A stretch of 64,000 nucleotides of DNA from an uncultured Bacilli bacterium (GCA_910584255.1 CAJTXV010000005.1:5700-69699), one strand, 5' to 3'; shown: positions 13,467-31,441, counted from the first letter of the stretch. Program-made: numbers and translations. The notes: generated by a model from the sequence alone, not told the origin.

Positions 13467-13484
13467 AATGGAGAAGGTGGTAAT

Positions 13485-14594
13485 ATGGAGAAACGTGATT
13501 ACTATGAAGTTTTAGGAGTCAGCAAGTCCGCTTCTCAAGATGAAATCAAATCAGCTTTTCGAAAACTAGCGAAACAATATCATCCAGATGTTAATAAAGA
13601 AGCAGGAGCCGAAGAAAAGTTTAAGGAAATTCAAGAGGCATATGCTGTTCTTTCGGACGAAGGAAAAAGAAAGCAATATGATCAATTTGGTCATGCAGCA
13701 TTCCAAGGTGGAGGTGCTGGTGGTGCCAGTGGCTTTGGAGGATTTGATTTTGGCGGGTTTGATTATGAGGATATTTTTGATAATATATTTGGAGGTTTTG
13801 GAGGCTTTGGTGGGCGTAGTAAAGGAAATGATTCGTTAATTCGAATGAAATTATCGTTCAAAGAGGCAATCTATGGAACCAAAAAAGAGATTGATATTGA
13901 TATTATTGATGAATGTGAAGAATGTGATGGAAAAGGTGGATTCAATGAATCTACTTGTGAGAAATGCCATGGAAGCGGTACGATTACGAGTGAACAAAGG
14001 ACTATCTTTGGTAGCTTTCTTTCAAAGACAACTTGTCCAAATTGTGGTGGTACAGGAAAATCCTATAAAAAGAAATGTACTCACTGTAATGGGAATGGTC
14101 GTGTAAAAGTCAAGAAAACTTTAGAAGTCAAAGTCCCTGCTGGGGTTGATAACGGAAATAGACTTCGCTTGTCTGGAAAAGGTTCTGCTGGTGCGAATGG
14201 AGGACCAAATGGTGACTTATATATCGAATTTAGCGTTTCTGAACATGATTTTTACATTCGTGACGGGGATGATATTTACTTAGAAACTCCTATTACAATA
14301 GTAGAAGCAATTTTAGGAGCAAAAAAAGAAATTCCAACTTTGTATGGGAATGTAGTTCTGACTATTCCAGAAGGTAGTGAATCAGGAGATAAACATCGTA
14401 TTAAGGGAAAAGGTGTACATAATGAATCTACTAAAAGAAAAGGTGATATGTACATTGTATTAAAAGTAATTACTCCAAAGAAACTTACGAAAGAGCAAAA
14501 AAGAATTATTGAATCCTTAAGGGAAACTGATTTAGTAGACAACGAAATGAAAAAGTTTGATCGTTTTGTAGAAGTAAACAATGAAAGCATTTAA
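13485..14594 (+). CDS. dnaJ: Co-chaperone DnaJ (Hsp40)
   Basis: J-domain (DYYEVLGV...HPDVNK), a Gly/Phe-rich region and four CxxCxGxG zinc-finger repeats; 369 aa. Confidence 0.9.
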
Positions 14595-14610
14595 CAAAGT
14601 GCTTTTTTTC
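14580..14610 (+). terminator. Weak terminator after dnaJ
   Basis: aagcatttaacaaagtgcttttttt (imperfect stem plus T7) overlapping the dnaJ stop. Confidence 0.3.
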
Positions 14611-14727
14611 TTGCCAACTTTACATTCTAATCGTAAAAAGACTTGTCAAAATTTGTTTCAATAGGCTATACTTAAGATATAAGAAAATAAGCTTCATAGT
14701 AAGTCAGTTTGAAAGTGAGGAAGTAAT

Positions 14728-15171
14728 ATGGAAGTAAAATTTAGAATAGCAACAAGGGATGACATAAAAGAGATTATTGATTTATGTAACGTTGTGTTTA
14801 TTGAGGATACCCCTTACGAATATGCACTTAAGGTGTTTGAAGAAACGAAAGATGATCCAAATAATATTTATCTAGTAGGAATAGTAGATGATAAGATTGT
14901 ATCTCATGCTAAAATTACAGTGGTTCATACGATGTATGAAAAAATGAATACTTATGCGATTTTAAACCATGTTTGTGTTATGGAAGAATATCGTAGACAT
15001 AATATTGCCACTAAAATGTTAATGGAAATTGAGAAAATTTGTAAGGAACACGGGTGCAAAAAGATGGAATTATGGTCTAATAATATTCGAGTTCCAGCAC
15101 ATACTTGTTATAAAAAATACGGATTTCATTTAGATGATGCAGGCTTCTTTTCTATGAATGTAAGAGGATAA
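14728..15171 (+). CDS. GNAT-family N-acetyltransferase (copy 1)
   Basis: 147 aa. Acetyl-CoA-binding-like motif HVCVMEEYRRHNIATKMLMEIEKICKEHGCKKMEL. Promoter-like TTGTCA-18-TATACT upstream. Confidence 0.6.
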   Translation: MEVKFRIATRDDIKEIIDLCNVVFIEDTPYEYALKVFEETKDDPNNIYLVGIVDDKIVSHAKITVVHTMYEKMNTYAILNHVCVMEEYRRHNIATKMLMEIEKICKEHGCKKMELWSNNIRVPAHTCYKKYGFHLDDAGFFSMNVRG

Positions 15172-15176
15172 GAACT

Positions 15177-16358
15177 ATGAAAATTGAGAGAATATATATT
15201 GGTGGGTGGTTTCAACGTACTACCTTGCAACTATCTGAAATTTATGATTTTGTTCGTGATGGAACTTCACAATTAAAGTTAGACAAAAATAAACTTCAAA
15301 AAATGAGAACTGACTTAGATCTTGCCCACGTTGAGTACAATGTAGATGGACTGGAATATTTAATGCTTACTACAAATACAGAAATTCAAATTAAAATATT
15401 TGAAGATGGACTTATCGTTTTAAATGATGGGGATGTCAACGAATTTTCCTTATTTCAGGACATTGAGTCTTTGGCACAGTACTATGAGAAAAAGCTATCT
15501 CCAGCATTTTCCTATCTCTTTAGTTTAGGTGCTCCTGTTCCAAAGGAACTTGCTAATATTGAAACAGTATATCCTTACTTTATTGTTTTAAATAATGCCA
15601 AAGAGGCAGAAATGCAAGCACTTCTTAGTAGAACGGAAAAACAAAAATATTTTGATTACAAAAATCAACATTATGACGTGGTTCGTGGAAATAAATATTA
15701 TTTTATTAATAATAAAACAAAGGATATGCATCAAGTGGAACGTTATATTGAAGAACAGATTTTTATTCGTGAGTTTAAGGCACAACTTCATCGCTATTTA
15801 AATCTTCATCGCATTATTTGGGAGAAAATCGATGAAGTAAAAGAAAATTCTCATGTTCGAGGAAAGGATATTATTGCTTTCAGTAATAAGATTGATGGTT
15901 ATAGAAAAACGGTCAATTTGATTGATTCTCGAATTAATCAGATGAATACATATATCAAAACAAGAGAAAAAATTGCGAAGAGTGATTCTAATTTAATTGA
16001 ATCATTAGATTTAATTGGGTACCGCTATGAAACATTAATTAATACAGTAAGCTATATGCAACAAATTTGGGCAATGACAAAGAATTATTTGAATCAAGCA
16101 GCAAAATTATTCGATAGTTTGGAGTCATCTATTACTGAAAAATCAGTTAATAGTTTAACAATTGTTACCTCCATGGGTGTTGGTGCATCTTTAATTGATT
16201 TGTTTACAGAATCTGCACCATCTTTTTCATCTTTTGGAATTATTTATTTCTTTATTCTAGCAATTGTTGGGTACTCCGTAAATAAAATTATGAAAAAGAT
16301 ATCAGAAAATAGAAAATATGAAATTTCAGATATTGAGTACGATAAAAACATTAAATAG
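15177..16358 (+). CDS. Hypothetical protein with a large soluble N-terminal domain and a C-terminal transmembrane anchor (copy 1)
   Basis: 393 aa. C-terminal hydrophobic segments (SLTIVTSMGVGASLIDLF, FGIIYFFILAIVGYSV) followed by KIMKK. Sits 5 nt after the GNAT stop, in an operon-like arrangement with the ABC exporter. It possibly has Rmd1/YagE (DUF155)-like topology; this is an inference only. Confidence 0.5.
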   Translation: MKIERIYIGGWFQRTTLQLSEIYDFVRDGTSQLKLDKNKLQKMRTDLDLAHVEYNVDGLEYLMLTTNTEIQIKIFEDGLIVLNDGDVNEFSLFQDIESLAQYYEKKLSPAFSYLFSLGAPVPKELANIETVYPYFIVLNNAKEAEMQALLSRTEKQKYFDYKNQHYDVVRGNKYYFINNKTKDMHQVERYIEEQIFIREFKAQLHRYLNLHRIIWEKIDEVKENSHVRGKDIIAFSNKIDGYRKTVNLIDSRINQMNTYIKTREKIAKSDSNLIESLDLIGYRYETLINTVSYMQQIWAMTKNYLNQAAKLFDSLESSITEKSVNSLTIVTSMGVGASLIDLFTESAPSFSSFGIIYFFILAIVGYSVNKIMKKISENRKYEISDIEYDKNIK

Positions 16359-16403
16359 AAGAGGTTCTATCCAAAGAACTTCTTTTTCTAAAAGGAGGAT
16401 AAT

Positions 16404-18140
16404 ATGTTTCGAAATTATTTGAATATCTTTGATGATTTTCGAGTTATTACAAAAAAACAAAGTAAGAAATATGTTTTTCTAATGCTTATATCTTCTGCTT
16501 TTCATCATATTTTTAGTTTACTCCCACCAATTGCTGCTGCAGGAATCATTGCAATGGTTACAGAAGAGAATATGAACTTAGTTTTCTTTTATGGTTGTCT
16601 GTTTTTATTCTTTTATTTTCTATATTTCTTCGCATTATATTGGAAATATTTTTCCTATAAAAAATTAGGAGAGATGTATCATACAGAGATTCAGGATTAT
16701 TTATTTGAAATTATCGCATCCAATGATGATATTCTAACAAAGATTTCAAAAGGGAAAATCATGGATGTTTGTAATACAGATATTGGTTATACTGTAGATG
16801 TGGTAGATGCCTTTATTGGTGCGATTATGAATTTAATCAAAATCATTATTTTATTTTTTATCTTTCTTCACTATAGTATTCTAGTCGGTTCCCTAGTAGT
16901 CGTTTTAGTTATCTTTTATTTTCTTTTAATGGACTCTAATTCTTTAGCGGTTTCTAAGTGCTATGAAGGAGAAAGAAAGTATGACGATAAAGTCATTGAT
17001 ATTTTAAATCAGATGCTTGCAAATCTAAAGCAAGTAAAAACATTGAATTTAATGACTAATCTTAATAAAAAACTATGGAAAACCAGGGGTTGTTGGAAAG
17101 AAAAATATACAAAAAGAAGAAATTATTTAATTAAAAGATATAGTATTTTACCTGTTATTTTGTACTTTACAAAATTTGTGTTATACATGATTTTGGCATC
17201 CATGGTAATTAGAAAACAAATGACTTTGGATAAACTTGTTTTATTAATTAGTTATTTTGAAGCTATTGTAACTGCAACAGATCAGACATTAGAGTACTTA
17301 CTCAATTTGAATAACTATAAAGTAAGAATGCAAAGAATTCGAAGTATTATCGATTATCCCCCACAAAAAGAATTTGATTTCGGCGACATTGATAATGATT
17401 ATATTTCAGGACTCATAGAATTCAAAAAGGTAAGTTATCAAGTAAAAGATGTGAAGGCATTAGATAATGTTAGTTTTAAGGTATATCCAAATGAGATTAA
17501 TGCAATTATCGGTCATTCTGGAAGTGGAAAGTCTACCATCATTCACTTGTTATATCGTCTTCATAAGGTTTCCTCTGGGATTATTTTAATTGATAATGTA
17601 AATATTTACGACTACACCAATCATGTTTATACATCCAATGTCTCAGGTGTTTATCAGAAACCATTTGTTTTTGATATGAGTATTCGTGATAATTTAAATT
17701 TAGTGAATTCAAATCGAAATCTTCAAATTGAAGCATGTAAAAGAGTAGGGATTCATGACTTTATCATGTCATTACCCAAAGGATATAATACGATTGTTAA
17801 TGAGGAAGATGCAATTGTTACTAGCGGTAAAAAGCAGCTATTGGCCATTGCACGAGCGTTGTTATCGAAAGCAGAAATCTTATTATTTGATGAAATTACA
17901 GGAAATGTTGATCCAGAAACTACCAATCAGATTCTTTCCATCTTGCTTGATTTAAAGGCTGACCACACCATTCTTATGGTAACACATAAACCTGAAATGA
18001 TGGAGATAGCCGATCGTGTGATTGTATTATCCAATGGAAAGGTAGAAAGCAAGGGCAAAAATAAAGATGTATACGAAAAATCTACTTTATATCAAGAACT
18101 TAAAAATCGTTCTTTTGTAAGTGTAAGTAAGGTAGAGTAG
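16404..18140 (+). CDS. ABC transporter, fused permease/ATP-binding protein (exporter type) (copy 1)
   Basis: 578 aa with N-terminal ~6 TM helices. Walker A GHSGSGKST, signature TSGKKQLLAIARAL and Walker B ILLFDEITGNVD. Confidence 0.85.
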   Translation: MFRNYLNIFDDFRVITKKQSKKYVFLMLISSAFHHIFSLLPPIAAAGIIAMVTEENMNLVFFYGCLFLFFYFLYFFALYWKYFSYKKLGEMYHTEIQDYLFEIIASNDDILTKISKGKIMDVCNTDIGYTVDVVDAFIGAIMNLIKIIILFFIFLHYSILVGSLVVVLVIFYFLLMDSNSLAVSKCYEGERKYDDKVIDILNQMLANLKQVKTLNLMTNLNKKLWKTRGCWKEKYTKRRNYLIKRYSILPVILYFTKFVLYMILASMVIRKQMTLDKLVLLISYFEAIVTATDQTLEYLLNLNNYKVRMQRIRSIIDYPPQKEFDFGDIDNDYISGLIEFKKVSYQVKDVKALDNVSFKVYPNEINAIIGHSGSGKSTIIHLLYRLHKVSSGIILIDNVNIYDYTNHVYTSNVSGVYQKPFVFDMSIRDNLNLVNSNRNLQIEACKRVGIHDFIMSLPKGYNTIVNEEDAIVTSGKKQLLAIARALLSKAEILLFDEITGNVDPETTNQILSILLDLKADHTILMVTHKPEMMEIADRVIVLSNGKVESKGKNKDVYEKSTLYQELKNRSFVSVSKVE

Positions 18141-18188
18141 TTCATAATAAAAGTTTGTTAGTCTAAATACCTATGCTTTCTAAAGTAC

Positions 18189-18216
18189 CAGCAAGAAATT
18201 TCTCTTGCTTTTTTTT
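18189..18216 (+). terminator. Rho-independent terminator after the ABC exporter (copy 1)
   Basis: gcaaga-aatttc-tcttgc followed by TTTTTTTT. Confidence 0.6.
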
Positions 18217-18259
18217 AAGATTTGTGCTATAATATGCTTACTTTTAAGGGGGGTTATGT

Positions 18260-19183
18260 ATGAAAATAACAAATTTAAAGTTTTATGCTGCTACTCTATT
18301 GATGGGTGGTAGTATTGTATATTCGAATGTACAAATGAAAGAAATGGAGGCATCGTTTGAGGAACGCATTAATGAGTATGCTGCACAACAACAATTATTA
18401 TGTCAAAAATATGATGACTTACAGGTACAATTAGAAGACTTTCAACAGGAAGTAGGTAAGACATCACATCAACTTGATTTATTACTGGCGAAGCAACAAG
18501 AAAAAAGACAAACTAATTATGCAGACGAAGTAGGAATTGTCGAAAATGATAATAGAATTAATAGTATTGCTATTGATCAGAAAGAAGATGGACAATATCT
18601 TTTAAATTTCTATAAAGTTGGAGTTCAACCATATGAATATATGGTAACTACTGACATTGATTCTACACTATCATCAATTGATGCTACTTATATAGATGAC
18701 ATCGATACTGTCTTTTTAGATGGATGTGAAGATAAAAAAGTATTAGATGCTTTAAAATATTTTAAGAATTTAAGACGTTTAAACTTGGACGAATGCACAT
18801 TTGCAGATGTTAGTAAAATTTCAAAACTAGGTGCACTAGAATATCTAAGAATTGCTGATTGTCCTAATGTTTCAGATATCAGTTCATTTAAGAACTTATC
18901 TAACTTAAGAGTTATAATACTGAATGGTACAGAAGTAGAAAATATTGAATCTTTATCTTATTTATCGAACTTGGAAGTTGTGGATTTAAAAGGAAATAAA
19001 ATTGTAAATCCTTGTTGTTTAGAGTGTTTACCTAGATTATATAATTTAATTTTAACAGACAATTGTATTACGGATATGTATTATTTAAATGGACTTATTC
19101 ATAATAATATAATTAGTGATATGGATGCAGAAGAAATCTTAAATTCTTATGCTTCTACTAGATTTAAAACAGGAACCATATAG
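18260..19183 (+). CDS. Leucine-rich-repeat (internalin-like) protein with an N-terminal signal or anchor and a coiled-coil region (copy 1)
   Basis: MKITNLKFYAATLLMGGSIVYS signal-like N-terminus. Q/L-rich coiled coil. 22-residue LRRs (NLRRLNLDECTFADVSKISKLGALEYLRIADCPNVSDISSFKNLSNLRVIILNGTEVENIESLSYLSNLEVVDLKGNKI). No LPXTG motif. Confidence 0.65.
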   Translation: MKITNLKFYAATLLMGGSIVYSNVQMKEMEASFEERINEYAAQQQLLCQKYDDLQVQLEDFQQEVGKTSHQLDLLLAKQQEKRQTNYADEVGIVENDNRINSIAIDQKEDGQYLLNFYKVGVQPYEYMVTTDIDSTLSSIDATYIDDIDTVFLDGCEDKKVLDALKYFKNLRRLNLDECTFADVSKISKLGALEYLRIADCPNVSDISSFKNLSNLRVIILNGTEVENIESLSYLSNLEVVDLKGNKIVNPCCLECLPRLYNLILTDNCITDMYYLNGLIHNNIISDMDAEEILNSYASTRFKTGTI

Positions 19184-19194
19184 GATTCCTTTTT

Positions 19195-20454
19195 TTATGA
19201 TTCTGTTTCTGTTAGTTTATTTTGTTCTTCCTCTCTTAATTTTTCTAATTTATCATTGATTTGTTTTAACATCCGTTCATTTGGTGAAGTATCTTTTGGA
19301 ATATAGTATTTTTTACCCTTTAGATTATTCGGCAAATATTGCTGTACTACAAAATTGTTAGGATAATCATGTGGATATTTATAAATAGTAGAGTGAATTT
19401 TAATGGTATCAGGAATATCTTCACAGCGGCCTGTTCGAACATCTTCTAACGCTTTATCAAGTGCAAGATGAGCTGTATTTGATTTAGGAGATAATGCCAT
19501 TTCTATTACAATTTCTCCTAAGGGAATTCTTGCTTCTGGAAGCCCTACTAGTTCACTGGCACTAATTGCAGCCATCACTCTAGGTCCAATTTCTGGATTT
19601 GCTAGTCCTATGTCTTCATAAGCAATTACACTCATCCGCCGGTAAATACTATCCAAATCTTCCATTTCAAGTAGTCTTGCCAAATAGTGAAGGCTAGCAT
19701 TTACATCACTTCCACGAATAGATTTTTGAAATGCACTCAGTAAATCATAATGACCCGATTCGCCTTTATCAGATATAATTACTGGTTTGTTATGAATACT
19801 TTTTATTAAATCTAATGTAATCTTTTTATTACTTGAAGAATAAAATGCCATCTCTAATAGATTATATGCATAACGAAGGTCACTTCCTGAAAGAGATGCA
19901 ATATGTTCTAATACCCCTTTTTCTACTTTGATTCCTTCTAAATCAGGGTGCTTGGTAGCTCGATTTAATCCTTCTAAAATGTCTGCACTTGTTAAATCCT
20001 TTAATTCAAATATCTGGCATCTACTACGAATGGCAGGATTGATTTTATGATATGGATTACTAGTAGTCATTCCAATTAAAGTAATTAATCCACTTTCTAG
20101 TTGCGGTAAGAGTAAGTCCTGTTTGTCCTTATTTAAACGATGAATTTCATCCATAATTAGGACAATTCCCTCATACATTTTAGCTTCTTCTACGACGATA
20201 TCAAAGTCTTTTTTATTATTCATTGTAGCATTAAAAAAACGATACCTGACTCCTAAATCCTTAACAATTGCATTTGCAATCGTTGTTTTTCCAATCCCAG
20301 GTTTTCCATATAAAATCATAGAAAATATTTTCTTATTATTAACTAGATTTCTTAATATTTTATTTTCGCCTAGTAAATGTTTTTGACCGATCACTTCATT
20401 GATAGAATTAGGAGTTAATTGTAATGCCAGTGGCTTCTTCATATTAATCACCAC
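19195..20454 (-). CDS. rarA: Replication-associated recombination protein A (AAA+ ATPase RarA/MgsA) (copy 1)
   Basis: Walker A GKPGIGKTT, Walker B LIMDEIHR and the MgsA C-terminal helical domain; 419 aa. Confidence 0.85.
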   Translation of the reverse strand: MVINMKKPLALQLTPNSINEVIGQKHLLGENKILRNLVNNKKIFSMILYGKPGIGKTTIANAIVKDLGVRYRFFNATMNNKKDFDIVVEEAKMYEGIVLIMDEIHRLNKDKQDLLLPQLESGLITLIGMTTSNPYHKINPAIRSRCQIFELKDLTSADILEGLNRATKHPDLEGIKVEKGVLEHIASLSGSDLRYAYNLLEMAFYSSSNKKITLDLIKSIHNKPVIISDKGESGHYDLLSAFQKSIRGSDVNASLHYLARLLEMEDLDSIYRRMSVIAYEDIGLANPEIGPRVMAAISASELVGLPEARIPLGEIVIEMALSPKSNTAHLALDKALEDVRTGRCEDIPDTIKIHSTIYKYPHDYPNNFVVQQYLPNNLKGKKYYIPKDTSPNERMLKQINDKLEKLREEEQNKLTETES

Positions 20455-20526
20455 TTATATTTTATCAAAAAAGAGTACTTTTTAAAAGAAATATGTTATA
20501 ATATAAAAGGATTGTAGGGAAGTAAT

Positions 20527-21423
20527 ATGAAGCTAGGAAATCAGATAGAAGAATATCTAGATTATGTCATTGTAGAACAAAATTTAACCATTAATACCAA
20601 AAATTCATATCAAAATGAATTAACAAAGTACATGGCATTTTTAGTAAGACGTGGTATTTGGAATATTGAGGATATAAAGTATGAAGATATTACAGAATAC
20701 TTAAAAGCTTTAAGTAATCAAAATCTAAAACCTCAATCTATTGCACATTCCATTACTGTTATTAGAAATTTTCATAAATACTTTGTGAAAACTGGAGACT
20801 TAAAGCAAGATGTTTCCAAAAATATCTCACAACCTAAATTACAAAAAAAACTACCAGTTACTTTATCAGTTCAAGATGTAGATTGCCTATTGGATATTCA
20901 GATAGAGACACCATTTGACTATCGGAATAAGGCTATGTTAGAATTATTGTATGGTACAGGGTTGAGAATCAGTGAACTTCTTAGTTTAACATTAAATGAT
21001 ATTGATTTAACTAATTGTACTGTACGTTGCATGGGGAAGGGAAGAAAAGAGAGAATTGTTCCTATTAATGACTTTATTATTGATTCTTTATCTAAATATT
21101 TAGAGGTGCGATGTCAATTAGAAAAAAGGGAGCGTTATGATTATCTTTTTTTAAATAATCATGGGAAACCGATTACAAGACAGGGCTTTTTTAAGATTTT
21201 AAAAAAAATATTATCAGAAAAAGGTCTAGACCCTAATACTTCTCCACATACATTAAGACATAGTTTTGCGACTCATTTACTAGAAAATGGGGCAGATCTT
21301 CGAGTAATTCAAGAGATGCTAGGACATAGTGATATTTCAACTACTAGAATTTATACGCATATTTCAAACCAAAAGGTAGAAAAAGATTATAAGAAATATC
21401 ATCCAAGAAAGGACGAGGAATAA
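20527..21423 (+). CDS. xerD: Tyrosine site-specific recombinase XerD/RipX-like (copy 1)
   Basis: 298 aa. C-terminal catalytic box HTLRHSFATHLLENGADLRVIQEMLGHSDISTTRIYTH. Located immediately upstream of deoB, as in B. subtilis ripX-drm. Confidence 0.8.
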   Translation: MKLGNQIEEYLDYVIVEQNLTINTKNSYQNELTKYMAFLVRRGIWNIEDIKYEDITEYLKALSNQNLKPQSIAHSITVIRNFHKYFVKTGDLKQDVSKNISQPKLQKKLPVTLSVQDVDCLLDIQIETPFDYRNKAMLELLYGTGLRISELLSLTLNDIDLTNCTVRCMGKGRKERIVPINDFIIDSLSKYLEVRCQLEKRERYDYLFLNNHGKPITRQGFFKILKKILSEKGLDPNTSPHTLRHSFATHLLENGADLRVIQEMLGHSDISTTRIYTHISNQKVEKDYKKYHPRKDEE

Positions 21424-21426
21424 ATT

Positions 21427-22859: not shown

Positions 22860-22990
22860 AAGTAATTACTCCAAAGAAACTTACGAAAGAGCAAAAAAGA
22901 ATTATTGAATCCTTAAGGGAAACTGATTTAGTAGACAACGAAATGAAAAAGTTTGATCGTTTTGTAGAAGTAAACAATGAAAGCATTTAA
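22836..22990 (+). pseudogene. Promoterless duplicated 3' fragment of dnaJ (last ~50 codons)
   Basis: Sequence identical to 14440..14594 (…[50 protein letters not shown]). No start codon. Confidence 0.7.
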
Positions 22991-23123
22991 CAAAGTGCTT
23001 TTTTTCTTGCCAACTTTACATTCTAATCGTAAAAAGACTTGTCAAAATTTGTTTCAATAGGCTATACTTAAGATATAAGAAAATAAGCTTCATAGTAAGT
23101 CAGTTTGAAAGTGAGGAAGTAAT

Positions 23124-23567
23124 ATGGAAGTAAAATTTAGAATAGCAACAAGGGATGACATAAAAGAGATTATTGATTTATGTAACGTTGTGTTTATTGA
23201 GGATACCCCTTACGAATATGCACTTAAGGTGTTTGAAGAAACGAAAGATGATCCAAATAATATTTATCTAGTAGGAATAGTAGATGATAAGATTGTATCT
23301 CATGCTAAAATTACAGTGGTTCATACGATGTATGAAAAAATGAATACTTATGCGATTTTAAACCATGTTTGTGTTATGGAAGAATATCGTAGACATAATA
23401 TTGCCACTAAAATGTTAATGGAAATTGAGAAAATTTGTAAGGAACACGGGTGCAAAAAGATGGAATTATGGTCTAATAATATTCGAGTTCCAGCACATAC
23501 TTGTTATAAAAAATACGGATTTCATTTAGATGATGCAGGCTTCTTTTCTATGAATGTAAGAGGATAA
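23124..23567 (+). CDS. GNAT-family N-acetyltransferase (copy 2, identical)
   Basis: Identical 147-aa product, +8396 offset. Confidence 0.6.
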   Translation: MEVKFRIATRDDIKEIIDLCNVVFIEDTPYEYALKVFEETKDDPNNIYLVGIVDDKIVSHAKITVVHTMYEKMNTYAILNHVCVMEEYRRHNIATKMLMEIEKICKEHGCKKMELWSNNIRVPAHTCYKKYGFHLDDAGFFSMNVRG

Positions 23568-23572
23568 GAACT

Positions 23573-24754
23573 ATGAAAATTGAGAGAATATATATTGGTG
23601 GGTGGTTTCAACGTACTACCTTGCAACTATCTGAAATTTATGATTTTGTTCGTGATGGAACTTCACAATTAAAGTTAGACAAAAATAAACTTCAAAAAAT
23701 GAGAACTGACTTAGATCTTGCCCACGTTGAGTACAATGTAGATGGACTGGAATATTTAATGCTTACTACAAATACAGAAATTCAAATTAAAATATTTGAA
23801 GATGGACTTATCGTTTTAAATGATGGGGATGTCAACGAATTTTCCTTATTTCAGGACATTGAGTCTTTGGCACAGTACTATGAGAAAAAGCTATCTCCAG
23901 CATTTTCCTATCTCTTTAGTTTAGGTGCTCCTGTTCCAAAGGAACTTGCTAATATTGAAACAGTATATCCTTACTTTATTGTTTTAAATAATGCCAAAGA
24001 GGCAGAAATGCAAGCACTTCTTAGTAGAACGGAAAAACAAAAATATTTTGATTACAAAAATCAACATTATGACGTGGTTCGTGGAAATAAATATTATTTT
24101 ATTAATAATAAAACAAAGGATATGCATCAAGTGGAACGTTATATTGAAGAACAGATTTTTATTCGTGAGTTTAAGGCACAACTTCATCGCTATTTAAATC
24201 TTCATCGCATTATTTGGGAGAAAATCGATGAAGTAAAAGAAAATTCTCATGTTCGAGGAAAGGATATTATTGCTTTCAGTAATAAGATTGATGGTTATAG
24301 AAAAACGGTCAATTTGATTGATTCTCGAATTAATCAGATGAATACATATATCAAAACAAGAGAAAAAATTGCGAAGAGTGATTCTAATTTAATTGAATCA
24401 TTAGATTTAATTGGGTACCGCTATGAAACATTAATTAATACAGTAAGCTATATGCAACAAATTTGGGCAATGACAAAGAATTATTTGAATCAAGCAGCAA
24501 AATTATTCGATAGTTTGGAGTCATCTATTACTGAAAAATCAGTTAATAGTTTAACAATTGTTACCTCCATGGGTGTTGGTGCATCTTTAATTGATTTGTT
24601 TACAGAATCTGCACCATCTTTTTCATCTTTTGGAATTATTTATTTCTTTATTCTAGCAATTGTTGGGTACTCCGTAAATAAAATTATGAAAAAGATATCA
24701 GAAAATAGAAAATATGAAATTTCAGATATTGAGTACGATAAAAACATTAAATAG
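23573..24754 (+). CDS. Hypothetical membrane-anchored protein (copy 2, identical)
   Basis: Identical 393-aa product, +8396 offset. Confidence 0.5.
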   Translation: MKIERIYIGGWFQRTTLQLSEIYDFVRDGTSQLKLDKNKLQKMRTDLDLAHVEYNVDGLEYLMLTTNTEIQIKIFEDGLIVLNDGDVNEFSLFQDIESLAQYYEKKLSPAFSYLFSLGAPVPKELANIETVYPYFIVLNNAKEAEMQALLSRTEKQKYFDYKNQHYDVVRGNKYYFINNKTKDMHQVERYIEEQIFIREFKAQLHRYLNLHRIIWEKIDEVKENSHVRGKDIIAFSNKIDGYRKTVNLIDSRINQMNTYIKTREKIAKSDSNLIESLDLIGYRYETLINTVSYMQQIWAMTKNYLNQAAKLFDSLESSITEKSVNSLTIVTSMGVGASLIDLFTESAPSFSSFGIIYFFILAIVGYSVNKIMKKISENRKYEISDIEYDKNIK

Positions 24755-24799
24755 AAGAGGTTCTATCCAAAGAACTTCTTTTTCTAAAAGGAGGATAAT

Positions 24800-26536
24800 A
24801 TGTTTCGAAATTATTTGAATATCTTTGATGATTTTCGAGTTATTACAAAAAAACAAAGTAAGAAATATGTTTTTCTAATGCTTATATCTTCTGCTTTTCA
24901 TCATATTTTTAGTTTACTCCCACCAATTGCTGCTGCAGGAATCATTGCAATGGTTACAGAAGAGAATATGAACTTAGTTTTCTTTTATGGTTGTCTGTTT
25001 TTATTCTTTTATTTTCTATATTTCTTCGCATTATATTGGAAATATTTTTCCTATAAAAAATTAGGAGAGATGTATCATACAGAGATTCAGGATTATTTAT
25101 TTGAAATTATCGCATCCAATGATGATATTCTAACAAAGATTTCAAAAGGGAAAATCATGGATGTTTGTAATACAGATATTGGTTATACTGTAGATGTGGT
25201 AGATGCCTTTATTGGTGCGATTATGAATTTAATCAAAATCATTATTTTATTTTTTATCTTTCTTCACTATAGTATTCTAGTCGGTTCCCTAGTAGTCGTT
25301 TTAGTTATCTTTTATTTTCTTTTAATGGACTCTAATTCTTTAGCGGTTTCTAAGTGCTATGAAGGAGAAAGAAAGTATGACGATAAAGTCATTGATATTT
25401 TAAATCAGATGCTTGCAAATCTAAAGCAAGTAAAAACATTGAATTTAATGACTAATCTTAATAAAAAACTATGGAAAACCAGGGGTTGTTGGAAAGAAAA
25501 ATATACAAAAAGAAGAAATTATTTAATTAAAAGATATAGTATTTTACCTGTTATTTTGTACTTTACAAAATTTGTGTTATACATGATTTTGGCATCCATG
25601 GTAATTAGAAAACAAATGACTTTGGATAAACTTGTTTTATTAATTAGTTATTTTGAAGCTATTGTAACTGCAACAGATCAGACATTAGAGTACTTACTCA
25701 ATTTGAATAACTATAAAGTAAGAATGCAAAGAATTCGAAGTATTATCGATTATCCCCCACAAAAAGAATTTGATTTCGGCGACATTGATAATGATTATAT
25801 TTCAGGACTCATAGAATTCAAAAAGGTAAGTTATCAAGTAAAAGATGTGAAGGCATTAGATAATGTTAGTTTTAAGGTATATCCAAATGAGATTAATGCA
25901 ATTATCGGTCATTCTGGAAGTGGAAAGTCTACCATCATTCACTTGTTATATCGTCTTCATAAGGTTTCCTCTGGGATTATTTTAATTGATAATGTAAATA
26001 TTTACGACTACACCAATCATGTTTATACATCCAATGTCTCAGGTGTTTATCAGAAACCATTTGTTTTTGATATGAGTATTCGTGATAATTTAAATTTAGT
26101 GAATTCAAATCGAAATCTTCAAATTGAAGCATGTAAAAGAGTAGGGATTCATGACTTTATCATGTCATTACCCAAAGGATATAATACGATTGTTAATGAG
26201 GAAGATGCAATTGTTACTAGCGGTAAAAAGCAGCTATTGGCCATTGCACGAGCGTTGTTATCGAAAGCAGAAATCTTATTATTTGATGAAATTACAGGAA
26301 ATGTTGATCCAGAAACTACCAATCAGATTCTTTCCATCTTGCTTGATTTAAAGGCTGACCACACCATTCTTATGGTAACACATAAACCTGAAATGATGGA
26401 GATAGCCGATCGTGTGATTGTATTATCCAATGGAAAGGTAGAAAGCAAGGGCAAAAATAAAGATGTATACGAAAAATCTACTTTATATCAAGAACTTAAA
26501 AATCGTTCTTTTGTAAGTGTAAGTAAGGTAGAGTAG
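24800..26536 (+). CDS. ABC exporter, fused permease/ATPase (copy 2, identical)
   Basis: Identical 578-aa product, +8396 offset. Confidence 0.85.
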   Translation: MFRNYLNIFDDFRVITKKQSKKYVFLMLISSAFHHIFSLLPPIAAAGIIAMVTEENMNLVFFYGCLFLFFYFLYFFALYWKYFSYKKLGEMYHTEIQDYLFEIIASNDDILTKISKGKIMDVCNTDIGYTVDVVDAFIGAIMNLIKIIILFFIFLHYSILVGSLVVVLVIFYFLLMDSNSLAVSKCYEGERKYDDKVIDILNQMLANLKQVKTLNLMTNLNKKLWKTRGCWKEKYTKRRNYLIKRYSILPVILYFTKFVLYMILASMVIRKQMTLDKLVLLISYFEAIVTATDQTLEYLLNLNNYKVRMQRIRSIIDYPPQKEFDFGDIDNDYISGLIEFKKVSYQVKDVKALDNVSFKVYPNEINAIIGHSGSGKSTIIHLLYRLHKVSSGIILIDNVNIYDYTNHVYTSNVSGVYQKPFVFDMSIRDNLNLVNSNRNLQIEACKRVGIHDFIMSLPKGYNTIVNEEDAIVTSGKKQLLAIARALLSKAEILLFDEITGNVDPETTNQILSILLDLKADHTILMVTHKPEMMEIADRVIVLSNGKVESKGKNKDVYEKSTLYQELKNRSFVSVSKVE

Positions 26537-26584
26537 TTCATAATAAAAGTTTGTTAGTCTAAATACCTATGCTTTCTAAAGTAC

Positions 26585-26612
26585 CAGCAAGAAATTTCTC
26601 TTGCTTTTTTTT
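26585..26612 (+). terminator. Rho-independent terminator (copy 2)
   Basis: Same hairpin plus T-tract as 18189..18216. Confidence 0.6.
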
Positions 26613-26655
26613 AAGATTTGTGCTATAATATGCTTACTTTTAAGGGGGGTTATGT

Positions 26656-27579
26656 ATGAAAATAACAAATTTAAAGTTTTATGCTGCTACTCTATTGATG
26701 GGTGGTAGTATTGTATATTCGAATGTACAAATGAAAGAAATGGAGGCATCGTTTGAGGAACGCATTAATGAGTATGCTGCACAACAACAATTATTATGTC
26801 AAAAATATGATGACTTACAGGTACAATTAGAAGACTTTCAACAGGAAGTAGGTAAGACATCACATCAACTTGATTTATTACTGGCGAAGCAACAAGAAAA
26901 AAGACAAACTAATTATGCAGACGAAGTAGGAATTGTCGAAAATGATAATAGAATTAATAGTATTGCTATTGATCAGAAAGAAGATGGACAATATCTTTTA
27001 AATTTCTATAAAGTTGGAGTTCAACCATATGAATATATGGTAACTACTGACATTGATTCTACACTATCATCAATTGATGCTACTTATATAGATGACATCG
27101 ATACTGTCTTTTTAGATGGATGTGAAGATAAAAAAGTATTAGATGCTTTAAAATATTTTAAGAATTTAAGACGTTTAAACTTGGACGAATGCACATTTGC
27201 AGATGTTAGTAAAATTTCAAAACTAGGTGCACTAGAATATCTAAGAATTGCTGATTGTCCTAATGTTTCAGATATCAGTTCATTTAAGAACTTATCTAAC
27301 TTAAGAGTTATAATACTGAATGGTACAGAAGTAGAAAATATTGAATCTTTATCTTATTTATCGAACTTGGAAGTTGTGGATTTAAAAGGAAATAAAATTG
27401 TAAATCCTTGTTGTTTAGAGTGTTTACCTAGATTATATAATTTAATTTTAACAGACAATTGTATTACGGATATGTATTATTTAAATGGACTTATTCATAA
27501 TAATATAATTAGTGATATGGATGCAGAAGAAATCTTAAATTCTTATGCTTCTACTAGATTTAAAACAGGAACCATATAG
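26656..27579 (+). CDS. LRR (internalin-like) protein (copy 2, identical)
   Basis: Identical 307-aa product, +8396 offset. Confidence 0.65.
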   Translation: MKITNLKFYAATLLMGGSIVYSNVQMKEMEASFEERINEYAAQQQLLCQKYDDLQVQLEDFQQEVGKTSHQLDLLLAKQQEKRQTNYADEVGIVENDNRINSIAIDQKEDGQYLLNFYKVGVQPYEYMVTTDIDSTLSSIDATYIDDIDTVFLDGCEDKKVLDALKYFKNLRRLNLDECTFADVSKISKLGALEYLRIADCPNVSDISSFKNLSNLRVIILNGTEVENIESLSYLSNLEVVDLKGNKIVNPCCLECLPRLYNLILTDNCITDMYYLNGLIHNNIISDMDAEEILNSYASTRFKTGTI

Positions 27580-27590
27580 GATTCCTTTTT

Positions 27591-28850
27591 TTATGATTCT
27601 GTTTCTGTTAGTTTATTTTGTTCTTCCTCTCTTAATTTTTCTAATTTATCATTGATTTGTTTTAACATCCGTTCATTTGGTGAAGTATCTTTTGGAATAT
27701 AGTATTTTTTACCCTTTAGATTATTCGGCAAATATTGCTGTACTACAAAATTGTTAGGATAATCATGTGGATATTTATAAATAGTAGAGTGAATTTTAAT
27801 GGTATCAGGAATATCTTCACAGCGGCCTGTTCGAACATCTTCTAACGCTTTATCAAGTGCAAGATGAGCTGTATTTGATTTAGGAGATAATGCCATTTCT
27901 ATTACAATTTCTCCTAAGGGAATTCTTGCTTCTGGAAGCCCTACTAGTTCACTGGCACTAATTGCAGCCATCACTCTAGGTCCAATTTCTGGATTTGCTA
28001 GTCCTATGTCTTCATAAGCAATTACACTCATCCGCCGGTAAATACTATCCAAATCTTCCATTTCAAGTAGTCTTGCCAAATAGTGAAGGCTAGCATTTAC
28101 ATCACTTCCACGAATAGATTTTTGAAATGCACTCAGTAAATCATAATGACCCGATTCGCCTTTATCAGATATAATTACTGGTTTGTTATGAATACTTTTT
28201 ATTAAATCTAATGTAATCTTTTTATTACTTGAAGAATAAAATGCCATCTCTAATAGATTATATGCATAACGAAGGTCACTTCCTGAAAGAGATGCAATAT
28301 GTTCTAATACCCCTTTTTCTACTTTGATTCCTTCTAAATCAGGGTGCTTGGTAGCTCGATTTAATCCTTCTAAAATGTCTGCACTTGTTAAATCCTTTAA
28401 TTCAAATATCTGGCATCTACTACGAATGGCAGGATTGATTTTATGATATGGATTACTAGTAGTCATTCCAATTAAAGTAATTAATCCACTTTCTAGTTGC
28501 GGTAAGAGTAAGTCCTGTTTGTCCTTATTTAAACGATGAATTTCATCCATAATTAGGACAATTCCCTCATACATTTTAGCTTCTTCTACGACGATATCAA
28601 AGTCTTTTTTATTATTCATTGTAGCATTAAAAAAACGATACCTGACTCCTAAATCCTTAACAATTGCATTTGCAATCGTTGTTTTTCCAATCCCAGGTTT
28701 TCCATATAAAATCATAGAAAATATTTTCTTATTATTAACTAGATTTCTTAATATTTTATTTTCGCCTAGTAAATGTTTTTGACCGATCACTTCATTGATA
28801 GAATTAGGAGTTAATTGTAATGCCAGTGGCTTCTTCATATTAATCACCAC
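27591..28850 (-). CDS. rarA: RarA/MgsA AAA+ ATPase (copy 2, identical)
   Basis: Identical 419-aa product, +8396 offset. Confidence 0.85.
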   Translation of the reverse strand: MVINMKKPLALQLTPNSINEVIGQKHLLGENKILRNLVNNKKIFSMILYGKPGIGKTTIANAIVKDLGVRYRFFNATMNNKKDFDIVVEEAKMYEGIVLIMDEIHRLNKDKQDLLLPQLESGLITLIGMTTSNPYHKINPAIRSRCQIFELKDLTSADILEGLNRATKHPDLEGIKVEKGVLEHIASLSGSDLRYAYNLLEMAFYSSSNKKITLDLIKSIHNKPVIISDKGESGHYDLLSAFQKSIRGSDVNASLHYLARLLEMEDLDSIYRRMSVIAYEDIGLANPEIGPRVMAAISASELVGLPEARIPLGEIVIEMALSPKSNTAHLALDKALEDVRTGRCEDIPDTIKIHSTIYKYPHDYPNNFVVQQYLPNNLKGKKYYIPKDTSPNERMLKQINDKLEKLREEEQNKLTETES

Positions 28851-28922
28851 TTATATTTTATCAAAAAAGAGTACTTTTTAAAAGAAATATGTTATAATAT
28901 AAAAGGATTGTAGGGAAGTAAT

Positions 28923-29819
28923 ATGAAGCTAGGAAATCAGATAGAAGAATATCTAGATTATGTCATTGTAGAACAAAATTTAACCATTAATACCAAAAAT
29001 TCATATCAAAATGAATTAACAAAGTACATGGCATTTTTAGTAAGACGTGGTATTTGGAATATTGAGGATATAAAGTATGAAGATATTACAGAATACTTAA
29101 AAGCTTTAAGTAATCAAAATCTAAAACCTCAATCTATTGCACATTCCATTACTGTTATTAGAAATTTTCATAAATACTTTGTGAAAACTGGAGACTTAAA
29201 GCAAGATGTTTCCAAAAATATCTCACAACCTAAATTACAAAAAAAACTACCAGTTACTTTATCAGTTCAAGATGTAGATTGCCTATTGGATATTCAGATA
29301 GAGACACCATTTGACTATCGGAATAAGGCTATGTTAGAATTATTGTATGGTACAGGGTTGAGAATCAGTGAACTTCTTAGTTTAACATTAAATGATATTG
29401 ATTTAACTAATTGTACTGTACGTTGCATGGGGAAGGGAAGAAAAGAGAGAATTGTTCCTATTAATGACTTTATTATTGATTCTTTATCTAAATATTTAGA
29501 GGTGCGATGTCAATTAGAAAAAAGGGAGCGTTATGATTATCTTTTTTTAAATAATCATGGGAAACCGATTACAAGACAGGGCTTTTTTAAGATTTTAAAA
29601 AAAATATTATCAGAAAAAGGTCTAGACCCTAATACTTCTCCACATACATTAAGACATAGTTTTGCGACTCATTTACTAGAAAATGGGGCAGATCTTCGAG
29701 TAATTCAAGAGATGCTAGGACATAGTGATATTTCAACTACTAGAATTTATACGCATATTTCAAACCAAAAGGTAGAAAAAGATTATAAGAAATATCATCC
29801 AAGAAAGGACGAGGAATAA
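28923..29819 (+). CDS. xerD: Tyrosine recombinase XerD-like (copy 2, identical)
   Basis: Identical 298-aa product, +8396 offset. Confidence 0.8.
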   Translation: MKLGNQIEEYLDYVIVEQNLTINTKNSYQNELTKYMAFLVRRGIWNIEDIKYEDITEYLKALSNQNLKPQSIAHSITVIRNFHKYFVKTGDLKQDVSKNISQPKLQKKLPVTLSVQDVDCLLDIQIETPFDYRNKAMLELLYGTGLRISELLSLTLNDIDLTNCTVRCMGKGRKERIVPINDFIIDSLSKYLEVRCQLEKRERYDYLFLNNHGKPITRQGFFKILKKILSEKGLDPNTSPHTLRHSFATHLLENGADLRVIQEMLGHSDISTTRIYTHISNQKVEKDYKKYHPRKDEE

Positions 29820-29822
29820 ATT

Positions 29823-30989
29823 ATGAAATTTAAAAGAGTATTTTTAGTAATTCTTGATTCTTTAGGAGTAGGGGAAGCAATGGATGCAGCCAACTATGGT
29901 GATACTGGTGCCAATACTCTAGGTCATATTAATGAACAATATAATTTATTTGTGCCTAACTTAAAGAAATTAGGGTTTATGGATACTTTAACGATGGCGG
30001 AAAATGATGAAGTAGAAGCCTATTATACAATCGCTAGACCAACAAATCCAGGAAAAGATACACTAACAGGTCATTATGAACTTCTTGGGGTAAGGAATTT
30101 AGTGCCATTTAAATCATTTACAGAAAATGGATTTCCACGTGATTTATTAGAACAAATTGAACAACTAACAAAAAGACGTGTCATTGGAAATAAAAATGCT
30201 CAGGGAATTGATATTATTAATGAACTTGGGGAGAGGCATATGCAGTATGGTGCATTAATTCTTTATACTTCGAATGGTTCTAACCTGTATATTGCTGCAC
30301 ATGAAGATATTATTCCTGCGGCAAAACTCTATGAGTATGCTGAAAAAATAAGAAAAATTACAATGACAGAAGAGTTAAAAATTGGGAGGGTGATTGCTCG
30401 TGTATTTACAGGAAAGCCTGGGAACTTTCGATTTACAAATGATCGTTATGATTTAGCAGTAAAACCACCTACTAAAAGTGTTTTTAATCTATTACAAGAA
30501 AATGATTATGCTACGATTTCGATTGGGAAAATTACAGATATTTTTGATGAAGATGGGATTTCAAAGAAAATGAAAGCAGGTAATAATACAGAAGCATTAA
30601 ATAAATTAAGTGATGTGATGGATAAAAATTTTACTGGATTATGTGTTTGTAATTTAAATGATTTTGATCAAGAATTTGGACATAGACGTGATTTGGAAGG
30701 ATATGCAAAAGCAATTGAAGAATTTGATGTTCAGGTACCAATGTTAATTAATAAGCTTGATACAGAGGATTTATTAATTTTTACTGCCGATCATGGATGT
30801 GATCCTACATTTCCTGGAAATGATCACACAAGAGAGAATGTTCCAGTTGTTATTTTTGGAAGAAATTTAAGATTCCCAGAGCGCTTAGATATCTTAGAGT
30901 CTATGGGTGATATTGGTGCTACAATTGCTGAAAACTTTGGAACAACGCAATTATTAGTTGGAAAAAGTTTTTTAGAAAAGTTGCAATGA
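29823..30989 (+). CDS. deoB: Phosphopentomutase (copy 2, identical)
   Basis: Identical 388-aa product, +8396 offset. Confidence 0.85.
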   Translation: MKFKRVFLVILDSLGVGEAMDAANYGDTGANTLGHINEQYNLFVPNLKKLGFMDTLTMAENDEVEAYYTIARPTNPGKDTLTGHYELLGVRNLVPFKSFTENGFPRDLLEQIEQLTKRRVIGNKNAQGIDIINELGERHMQYGALILYTSNGSNLYIAAHEDIIPAAKLYEYAEKIRKITMTEELKIGRVIARVFTGKPGNFRFTNDRYDLAVKPPTKSVFNLLQENDYATISIGKITDIFDEDGISKKMKAGNNTEALNKLSDVMDKNFTGLCVCNLNDFDQEFGHRRDLEGYAKAIEEFDVQVPMLINKLDTEDLLIFTADHGCDPTFPGNDHTRENVPVVIFGRNLRFPERLDILESMGDIGATIAENFGTTQLLVGKSFLEKLQ

Positions 30990-31441
30990 TGAAAAAAATT
31001 GTATTTGTTTGCTTGGGAAATATTTGCAGAAGTCCCATGGCTGAAGCAATTATGAAAAAACTTTTAAAGGAACAAAAATTAGAGATGATTTTTCAAGTAG
31101 ATTCAATGGCTACTAGTTTTGAGGAAGTAGGAAATCCTATTTATCCTCCTGCACGAGAAAAGCTAAAAGAGAGGGGCATTTTAGCTTTCACACATCAAGC
31201 AAAAGTTTTTAAAAAAGAAAACTACGATGAATATGATTATATTATTGGGATGGAAGAGAGTAATATCTATAATTTAATACGTATTGTTGATGCCGATCAA
31301 GAGCATAAAATTCGTAAGCTACTTGGCCATCATGATATTAAAGATCCTTGGTATACAAGAGATTTTGAAACAACTTATCAAGAAATTGAATATGGATGTC
31401 GTCAACTTTTAGAAGAATTAATAAAAAGAGAAGGGGAGTAG
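30986..31441 (+). CDS. Low-molecular-weight protein-tyrosine phosphatase (intact copy)
   Basis: P-loop CLGNICRSPMAEAI (CX5R) and the DPWY motif; 151 aa. Overlaps the deoB stop by 4 nt. Confidence 0.8.
   Translation: MMKKIVFVCLGNICRSPMAEAIMKKLLKEQKLEMIFQVDSMATSFEEVGNPIYPPAREKLKERGILAFTHQAKVFKKENYDEYDYIIGMEESNIYNLIRIVDADQEHKIRKLLGHHDIKDPWYTRDFETTYQEIEYGCRQLLEELIKREGE

Follow-up and report, generated by a model that had tools for sequence, protein, structure and literature searches.

An 8,396-bp chromosomal segment of an uncultured low-GC gut member of the Bacilli has, with good confidence, undergone a genuine, lineage-specific tandem duplication through a single illegitimate event, and the number of copies may exceed two. 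The segment lies in a 64,000-nucleotide stretch of DNA (the window) that derives from contig ERR3199667_499 of the ENA metagenome assembly ERZ17811876 (run ERR3199667). The first-pass annotation had offered two readings, a duplication by illegitimate recombination and an assembly artefact. The former is favoured by the recurrence of the joint and of the edge breaks in other assemblies and by the existence of single-copy relatives.

Geometry of the repeat and its joint

Comparison of the window with itself at an offset of 8396 reveals a single unbroken run of 8,399 identical bases, with 14437-22835 equal to 22833-31231, which bears out the perfect 8.4-kb tandem duplication described at first reading. 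The 8,396-bp units are arranged head to tail without a spacer and share one new joint. Copy 1 spans 14437-22832 (plus strand), as defined by the exact identity and by the Logan contig ERR3199549_62532, and comprises the dnaJ 3' end, a GNAT acetyltransferase gene, a gene for a 393-residue hypothetical protein, genes for an ABC exporter and an LRR protein, rarA (minus strand), xerD, deoB and the 5' half of the gene for an LMW phosphotyrosine phosphatase (PTP). Copy 2 (22833-31228, plus strand) consists of the same bases.

The novel joint is a GAA overlap at 22833-22835 (plus strand) that connects PTP codon 83 to dnaJ nucleotide 953, and is crossed by the Logan contig ERR3199568_46786; a fusion of PTP through gaa to the last 155 nt of dnaJ had been correctly recognized. 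The parental GAA triplets are located at 14437-14439 and 31229-31231, and GAA is all that the parental sites have in common. Because overlaps of at least 3 bp are expected at 7.8 % of random joins in the AT-rich sequence of the window, the microhomology was dropped as a significant signal, and it constitutes weak evidence for a homology-guided joint.

Assignment to the illegitimate class depends on the absence from the parental boundaries of extended repeats, taken as about 35 bp or more, and of IS, rrn and REP sequences; none of these is present there. A repeat search of the whole window detected no repeats of 60 nt or more near the unit, and the sole other repeat of that length is found at 57.8/59.2 kb. 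Homologous recombination between flanking repeats (an R-D-R-D-R arrangement) was ruled out on the basis of this search. A scan for joint-specific promoter or terminator rewiring gave scores no better than those of shuffled sequences. The putative promoter upstream of the GNAT gene sits within the unit and is present in both copies.

Genes in and around the unit

Seven intact genes recur at +8396. The recurrence reported in the first-pass annotation stands, but its count of eight ORFs does not, the title of that annotation itself listing seven genes. The GNAT acetyltransferase (14728-15171 and 23124-23567, plus strand) is assigned by a domain match, and no specific equivalog reaches its cut-off. 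It is followed by the 393-residue hypothetical protein (15177-16358 and 23573-24754, plus strand), for which searches of Pfam, NCBIfam, PADLOC and the PDB returned no match. The ABC exporter (16404-18140 and 24800-26536, plus strand) is a fused TMD-NBD protein of the MsbA or type I secretion kind with ABC_membrane and ABC_tran domains, and every equivalog scored under its cut-off. Neither the exporter nor the GNAT protein matches a resistance equivalog above cut-off, and a PADLOC search of this variable island for defence systems retrieved generic ABC-ATPase matches only. The LRR protein (18260-19183 and 26656-27579, plus strand) is internalin-like, with LRR domains and an N-terminal hydrophobic segment.

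The remaining three genes are rarA (19195-20454 and 27591-28850, minus strand), encoding an AAA+ ATPase of the RarA/MgsA family (Pfam MgsA_C, 163.6 bits); xerD (20527-21423 and 28923-29819, plus strand), encoding the XerD tyrosine recombinase (TIGR02225, 336.4 bits against a cut-off of 329.6); and deoB (21427-22593 and 29823-30989, plus strand), encoding the DeoB phosphopentomutase (NF003766, 462.9 bits against a cut-off of 256).

The breakpoints fall within two further genes, each of which is retained once in intact form, as had been claimed. The sole intact dnaJ (13485-14594, plus strand) encodes 369 residues with Pfam DnaJ, DnaJ_C and DnaJ_CXXCXGXG domains, and the left breakpoint falls at its codon 318. 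The sole intact PTP gene (30986-31441, plus strand) encodes 151 residues (Pfam LMWPc, 119.5 bits), and the right breakpoint comes after codon 82-83. Both survive because the duplication is tandem. At the joint, the predicted chimeric ORF (PTP', 22590-22859, plus strand) translates as described, into 89 amino acids: PTP residues 1-82, a glutamate, and the sequence KVICTLY read from dnaJ DNA in another frame. An NCBI contig encodes an identical protein. The CX5R(S) P-loop is present in PTP' and the C-terminal DPW Asp loop is missing; the truncated protein is probably inactive. A 155-nt remnant of the dnaJ 3' end is left as an orphan at 22836-22990 (plus strand), where gene callers place a 48-residue ORF at 22844-22990. 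Elsewhere in the window, a 148-residue ORF at 63416-63862 had no record on look-up.

The joint and the unit edges in other assemblies

Independent assemblies were compared by the positions at which their contigs break or begin relative to the unit. In the Logan assemblies (k=31) of runs ERR3199667, ERR3199549 and ERR3199568, contigs either break or start exactly at a unit edge or run across the joint. At the left edge, ERR3199667_12326, from the same run as the window, stops at 14466, which is 30 nt (k-1) inside the unit. At the right edge, ERR3199549_1128 begins at 31202, equal to 31232-30. The contig ERR3199549_62532 corresponds exactly to 14437-22835 (8,399 bp) and was found in one further sample too, and ERR3199568_46786 begins at 22806, the first joint-specific 31-mer, and spans the joint at 100 % identity. 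In the MAG GCA_949949055.1, assembled at k=127, the flank contigs stop at 14563 and begin at 31105, and both reach 127 nt into the unit. The exact 89-residue PTP' protein is on record from both NCBI and ENA, and the longest contig that carries it measures 102,061 bp. With edge breaks and crossings taken together, the joint is visible in at least three assembled runs and two additional MAGs. No match was obtained in JGI metagenomes with a 36-mer taken from the PTP side of the joint. The three joint-positive Logan runs all belong to the ERR3199xxx series and may stem from a single host, cohort or flow cell.

These results bear directly on whether chimeric reads or a mis-join produced the repeat from a chromosome with one copy. 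The window is a metagenome assembly, and short reads cannot span a perfect 8.4-kb repeat. A 3-bp overlap is typical of chimeras, random chimeric ligation yields the same, and joints of less than 7 bp have been taken as indistinguishable from chimeras (PMC3411829). In addition, one 100 % identical contig is single copy. An artefact should, however, be confined to one assembly or assembler, whereas the branch points are shared by the k=31 assembly of the same run, by other runs and by the k=127 assembly: graph breaks at the same bases, or the joint itself, occur in the Logan assemblies of the three runs, in the k=127 MAG and in the 102-kb NCBI contig, and contigs from other studies are unbroken at these positions. 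Since the joint recurs across runs and random chimeras do not, a chimeric origin is disfavoured. The PTP-to-dnaJ joint cannot be put down to an isolated error of one assembler, and an artefact of assembly or library preparation is, overall, very unlikely.

An extrachromosomal 8.4-kb circle, closed at GAA and accompanying a single-copy chromosome, would have joint k-mers and a de Bruijn graph identical to those of a tandem repeat, and homologous pop-out from a duplication would produce such a molecule. The Logan contig of the unit alone, however, is bounded by two chromosomal branch nodes and is not a free cycle, although the graphs leave the topology open to both forms. Domain searches of the unit identified no replication initiator or partition gene, and neither the gene content nor the contig is that of a plasmid or autonomous circle. 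The ends are inside the dnaJ and PTP coding sequences rather than at recombinase sites; excision from a single-copy chromosome would truncate dnaJ and delete rarA, xerD and deoB; and a non-replicating form would not attain assembly-level abundance in several runs. We consider a circle of this kind as improbable as an artefact.

Single-copy strains and relatives

Comparison with related genomes, proposed as a check at first reading, showed a single copy in near-identical conspecific contigs and in related species. A contig of 15,439 bp from the conspecific GCA_948705595.1 is 100.000 % identical to the window minus copy 2. A unit edge is crossed without a break in an ENA BATT21-1 scaffold and in Logan contigs from SRR34957005, SRR14214859, ERR12319732, SRR29855669, SRR20730941, SRR35270350 and DRR815547, and contigs of other samples cover both edges in the single-copy arrangement. 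The gene order pepF-dnaJ-...-rarA-xerD-deoB is present once in at least 13 related species. A single copy is the ancestral state, and the duplication is a recent, strain-specific event. The estimate of recency follows from the existence of the 100.000 %-identical single-copy contig and not from the match of the copies to each other. The identity of the copies had been read as a mark of recency; the bases in the window are indeed identical, but this identity follows from the graph method and carries no information about age.

Copy number

The assembly graphs behind the joint contigs are almost certainly short-read graphs. Because a de Bruijn graph holds a repeat longer than the reads as one edge and walks it twice, both the 100 % identity of the copies and the count of two result from the procedure, and the second copy is the assembler's choice, since short reads cannot span the repeat. 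The two-copy path L-U-J-U-R is the shortest walk through the looped graph. The copy number that we infer may therefore lie above two, and either all cells or a subset of them could carry the segment two or more times. The doubled dosage of XerD and RarA proposed in the first-pass annotation is plausible.

A mixed population, with the joint in some cells, or a higher-order amplification of three or more copies, as in heteroresistance, is best regarded as a refinement of the tandem duplication and not as an alternative to it. Wild-type boundary branches and the joint branch occur in the same runs, as expected for any copy number of at least two or for a mixture, and tandem amplification of patAB that raises ABC transporter expression is documented in pneumococcus (PMC4432121). 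Three contigs of 50-200 kb that carry the PTP' ORF show two copies each, yet this is the default traversal of the loop, and nothing counts against a mixture or further amplification. We regard such a state as a serious possibility, if less likely than not.

The dif site and the replication terminus

The unit is situated next to a 28-bp motif, ATTTCGCATAATTGATATTATGTTAACT, at 32089-32116 (minus strand), which lies outside the duplication, 858 bp beyond its right edge, and serves as context. The 28-mer, composed of a XerC arm, a 6-bp spacer and a XerD arm, occurs once in the window. In our own comparison it has 21 of 28 bases in common with E. coli dif, and the arms CGCATAAT and TTATGTTAA are intact. 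In 14 related species the motif is found at the corresponding syntenic location with at most five mismatches. The cumulative G-C curve peaks at 31446, with a plateau at 31395-32673, and the skew changes from +0.18 on the left to -0.18 on the right. These features identify 32089-32116 as the predicted chromosomal dif at the replication terminus. The first-pass annotation had overlooked this setting of the unit.

IMEX elements, such as CTX-phi and the gonococcal genetic island, form tandem arrays integrated at dif by XerCD. The present repeat resembles them in being tandem, near dif and in possession of a Xer recombinase gene, and an IMEX-like integration, or another mobile-element or repeat-mediated homologous event, might be invoked from the presence of xerD in a unit 858 bp from dif. 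The unit differs from IMEX elements, however, in that it lacks dif-like bounds, consists of ancestral chromosomal genes and lies off dif. Within 60 nt on either side, the breakpoints match the local dif 28-mer at best at 15/28 and 14/28 positions, whereas the background has a median of 15 and a 95th percentile of 17; a Xer/dif-mediated origin was ruled out on these scores. The proximity of xerD-deoB to dif is ancestral synteny, seen in 14 species. No direct or inverted repeats, IS elements or rRNA genes flank the unit. The probability of any such event is negligible.

Formation and maintenance of the duplication

The tandem duplication is a further case of a classical, known type of mutation. 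RecA-independent tandem duplications in Salmonella, E. coli and Pseudomonas fluorescens SBW25 are likewise head to tail, with one new joint, a 0-4 bp overlap, no flanking repeat and a single-copy ancestor. Joints of this kind are ascribed to end-joining or template switching, and a 3-bp joint of the same class occurs in an isolate of P. fluorescens SBW25 (Tandem preprint, bioRxiv 10.64898/2026.05.22.727201). In contrast to these laboratory duplications, the present one comes from metagenome assemblies of an uncultured bacterium rather than from a selected culture, and lies directly beside dif. A DNA end at PTP codon 83 would have been joined 8,396 bp upstream into the dnaJ 3' end, on a sister chromosome or an already-replicated template, by unequal non-homologous joining or a backward switch of the replication template. 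The new products are limited to the truncated PTP' and the dnaJ 3' remnant, and seven genes gain an extra copy. We infer both this route and the location of the joint in the chromosome, as opposed to a pop-out circle.

RecA-dependent recombination, especially near the fork-fusion zone, bears on repeat loss (PMC12809603), and a perfect 8.4-kb repeat should be lost quickly by this route. Its persistence would therefore need selection or a very recent origin. Recurrence across runs, with identical strains elsewhere in single copy, hints at selection or clonal spread in one cohort. The most conventional targets of selection for dosage would be the ABC exporter and the GNAT protein. The present repeat, which is tandem, a few kb long and inclusive of an ABC exporter and an acetyltransferase, resembles selected amplifications such as that of patAB in Streptococcus pneumoniae (PMC4432121) and those of heteroresistance; it differs in being known from sequence alone, in having no resistance equivalog above cut-off and in the co-duplication of five other genes.

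The location, less than 1 kb from dif, is one where work in E. coli predicts raised repeat instability. As in E. coli fork-fusion and terminus instability, the event lies less than 1 kb from the inferred fork-fusion and dif region. The E. coli studies demonstrated over-replication, local hyper-recombination and raised repeat deletion, and they do not show formation of stable tandem duplications (PMC6125675, PMC4999828, PMC12809603); the link to the present duplication is by position only. A more speculative extension, which we hold to be rather unlikely, is that fork fusion itself formed a positively selected, stably inherited amplification. A 3' end displaced at termination would have re-primed 8.4 kb upstream, and the product would have been kept despite hyper-recombination at the terminus by the advantage, in the host cohort, of additional ABC exporter and GNAT protein or, at the terminus, of additional XerD and RarA. 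If true, such a selected terminus amplification would be a natural, metagenome-visible case of termination-driven gene amplification.

Annotators should avoid recording the second copy, the PTP' ORF or the dnaJ' fragment as fixed features of the species. Here the break positions of independent de Bruijn-graph assemblies showed the joint to be real, and a suspiciously perfect repeat in a metagenome contig can be vetted in this way with no recourse to reads.

Organization of the repeat

When the window is compared against a copy of itself shifted by 8,396 bases, there is a single unbroken run of 8,399 matches (14437-22835 versus 22833-31231) and no further match of at least 15 nt at that offset, which bears out the perfect tandem duplication of about 8.4 kb described in the first-pass annotation. 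The repeat unit is 8,396 bp long, with copy 1 at 14437-22832 and copy 2 at 22833-31228. The triplet GAA stands at the start of copy 1 (within dnaJ), at the joint, and directly after copy 2 (within the gene for a low-molecular-weight phosphotyrosine phosphatase, PTP). Each copy holds seven complete genes, rather than the eight counted previously, and all recur with identical translations, as had been stated. They encode a GNAT acetyltransferase, a protein of 393 aa for which no family was detected, a fused ABC exporter, an internalin-like LRR protein, the RarA/MgsA ATPase (minus strand), XerD and DeoB, the last two exceeding their curated cut-offs.

The single intact dnaJ (13485-14594) and the single intact PTP gene (30986-31441) were likewise confirmed, as was the chimeric truncated PTP ORF created by the joint (22590-22859). 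This ORF of 89 aa comprises PTP residues 1-82, a glutamate, and 7 residues translated from dnaJ sequence in a different frame. The CX5R P-loop is retained and the C-terminal DPW loop is missing. The product is probably inactive. Only one other repeat is present in the window, a 100-nt direct repeat of 79% identity (57852-57951 versus 59173-59272, 1,321 bp apart) that probably marks paralogous minus-strand genes.

Assembly graph and reality of the joint

The window derives from an uncultured organism and belongs to contig ERR3199667_499 (70,603 bp) of the ENA metagenome assembly ERZ17811876. Judging by the behavior of the contigs, the source data were very probably short reads, and their assembly used a de Bruijn graph. 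A graph of this kind represents a perfect repeat exceeding the read length by one edge, and a tandem duplication becomes a loop in which the left flank leads into the unit, the unit returns to itself through the joint, and the unit leads into the right flank; the shortest walk using all edges is left flank, unit, joint, unit, right flank. Because the repeat is one edge, the method itself makes both copies of the contig identical, and their number, two, is a default of the graph walk, not a measured value. The 100% identity of the copies, put forward earlier as a sign of recency, therefore fails as proof on its own, and copy number and copy identity remain assumptions of the assembler.

The joint itself leaves a specific trace in independent assemblies. 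In the Logan assemblies (k = 31), the left-flank contig of run ERR3199667 ends at 14466, exactly 30 nt (k-1) inside the unit. In ERR3199549, the unit alone forms an 8,399-bp contig identical to 14437-22835, a contig seen in one more sample as well, and the right-flank contig of ERR3199549 starts at 31202 (31232-30). A 2,227-bp contig of ERR3199568 begins at 22806, where the 31-mers first become specific to the PTP-to-dnaJ joint, and traverses the joint with 100% identity. In the NCBI MAG GCA_949949055.1, the left-flank contig stops at 14563 and the right-flank contig begins at 31105; both reach 127 nt into the unit, as k = 127 predicts. The exact 89-aa chimeric protein is recorded at both NCBI and ENA, the longest carrying contig being 102,061 bp, and the chimeric ORF is present on three contigs of 50-200 kb. 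An assembly artefact, the alternative offered in the first-pass annotation, would have the joint arise from chimeric reads or an assembler error. This is essentially excluded for the joint, since the same branch points recur to the base in several runs and at two k-mer sizes, which is not the behavior of random chimeric reads or of a single assembler error. The DNA of these samples does contain the joint. The accessions of the three joint-positive Logan runs all belong to the series ERR3199xxx, and the runs may represent one host or one cohort, so that independence is established for run and assembler only, not for biological sample.

A free 8.4-kb circle closed at the same GAA would produce the same assembly graph as a tandem repeat. 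The unit contains no replication functions and its ends fall within two coding sequences. Such a circle could at most be a pop-out product of the duplication.

Ancestral and derived states

Conspecific contigs carry the locus in a single copy. Contig CAPTGO010000001.1 of GCA_948705595.1 (15,439 bp) spans both flanks and matches the window minus copy 2 at 100.000% identity, and an ENA BATT21-1 scaffold runs in single copy through both flanks with 99.8% identity. Among Logan contigs, those of SRR34957005 cross both edges unbroken, those of SRR14214859 and ERR12319732 cross the left edge, and those of SRR29855669, SRR20730941, SRR35270350 and DRR815547 read through the right edge. At least 13 related species likewise have a single instance of the order pepF-dnaJ-[variable]-rarA-xerD-deoB-(PTP). 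The duplication is thus derived and strain-specific, and the absence of any substitution between carriers and non-carriers over 15 kb makes it recent on the scale of sequence divergence. With the joint seen in independent assemblies and a single copy in relatives, the earlier reading as a tandem duplication is supported.

Clonality in the species is extreme: across many unrelated accession series (SRR, DRR, ERR, ERZ), contigs share 99.7-100% identity over stretches of 1-15 kb. This uniformity suggests a host population with a very uniform microbiota, e.g. laboratory or farmed animals. In GTDB, the closest relatives at species level are MAGs that bear the labels uncultured Bacillales, Bacilli, Tenericutes or Erysipelotrichaceae, derived, according to their record titles, from rabbit, ruminant, human and other metagenomes. 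DeoB identity to these relatives is at most 92%.

Formation of the duplication

A repeat search of the whole window found no repeat of at least 60 nt flanking the unit, which excludes homologous recombination between IS, rrn or other repeats. The parental sites have only GAA in common. Overlaps of at least 3 bp are found in 7.8% of random joins in this sequence, and the joint is thus effectively near-blunt. XerD, though encoded in the unit, was rejected as the maker of the joint because the breakpoints are not dif-like, matching dif at 14-15 of 28 positions, the background median. With these features the event belongs among the classical RecA-independent, illegitimate tandem duplications. It would have proceeded by unequal end-joining between sister chromosomes or by a backward switch of replication template. 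Joints of 0-4 bp without flanking repeats have been assigned to the end-joining/template-switch class, including a 3-bp example in P. fluorescens (bioRxiv 10.64898/2026.05.22.727201).

Proximity to the terminus and dif

The GC skew changes from +0.18 (1-31441) to -0.18 (32117-64000); its cumulative maximum is at 31446, where gene orientation also converges. On this evidence, the skew switch at ~31446 is the replication terminus. A canonical XerCD-type dif 28-mer, ATTTCGCATAATTGATATTATGTTAACT, lies right at this skew switch, on the minus strand at 32089-32116 in the non-coding stretch just beyond PTP, and is unique in the window. Against the textbook E. coli dif, the XerC arm CGCATAAT and the XerD arm TTATGTTAA are intact and 21 of 28 bases agree; agreement with the B. 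subtilis dif is likewise 21/28. In 14 related species the 28-mer is kept at the syntenic position with at most 5 mismatches, while the surrounding spacer varies. The right edge of the duplication is 858 bp from dif, and the second xerD copy is ~2.3 kb from it. The first-pass annotation, accurate in its description of the locus, had missed this context.

In the 14 related species, dif always lies 0.2-2.5 kb downstream of xerD-deoB(-PTP), and xerD in this clade is therefore encoded beside its own site. A recombinase gene beside its own site is known for XerS/difSL and XerH/difH and is unusual for XerD. Between PTP and dif, the minus strand carries a cysteine-rich ORF of 62 aa (MSKKKKESTNNQNIKCNVESCTHQDCDNHCC...; 31461-31649). 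All conspecific contigs that cover the interval have this ORF called, and no family assignment is on record for it.

In E. coli, fork fusion leads to over-replication and to a local rise in recombination that includes quicker loss of tandem repeats (PMC6125675, PMC4999828, PMC12809603). If these findings carry over, a perfect repeat at this position would have a particularly short life, and finding it in several runs would then suggest, speculatively, selection or very recent clonal spread. It is also conceivable, again as speculation, that termination-associated DNA ends were the source of the duplication event.

Consequences and neighboring loci

No gene is lost through the duplication, and the dosage of seven genes is raised if most cells carry the repeat. 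For dosage selection, the ABC exporter and the GNAT acetyltransferase are the conventional candidates, the former comparable to the pneumococcal patAB tandem duplication (PMC4432121). In the profile search, neither reached a resistance-family cut-off. A promoter-like element upstream of the GNAT gene, a weak consensus match only, falls inside the unit, and both copies thus have the same upstream context. The duplication is a further instance of a well-known type of mutation, unusual to some extent in having been caught in metagenomes and in abutting dif.

The dnaJ-to-rarA interval (14595-19190) is a variable island among the related species compared. The GNAT, 393-aa and ABC exporter proteins are shared only with the nearest species (86-88% aa identity), and the LRR protein is only ~25-37% identical where matched, in that species and one other; none of the four has a match in the more distant relatives compared. 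In some relatives, dnaJ and rarA are <100 nt apart.

The heat-shock cluster (7930-14594) has the order hrcA-grpE-dnaK-pepF-dnaJ, in which pepF, placed between dnaK and dnaJ, encodes an M3 oligoendopeptidase F; most related species examined also have pepF next to dnaJ. Across same-species samples, dnaJ occurs in 369-aa and 375-aa forms. Over 14.3 kb shared with the 102-kb NCBI contig, all 22 mismatches fall within a 112-bp patch (2937-3048) in the 3' part of a gene ending at 3303, whose product, a giant surface protein of ~2,990 aa, contains dockerin, cadherin-like and ALK_LTK_GRD domains. Either a hypervariable or repeat segment or the assembler's choice between repeats could account for the patch.
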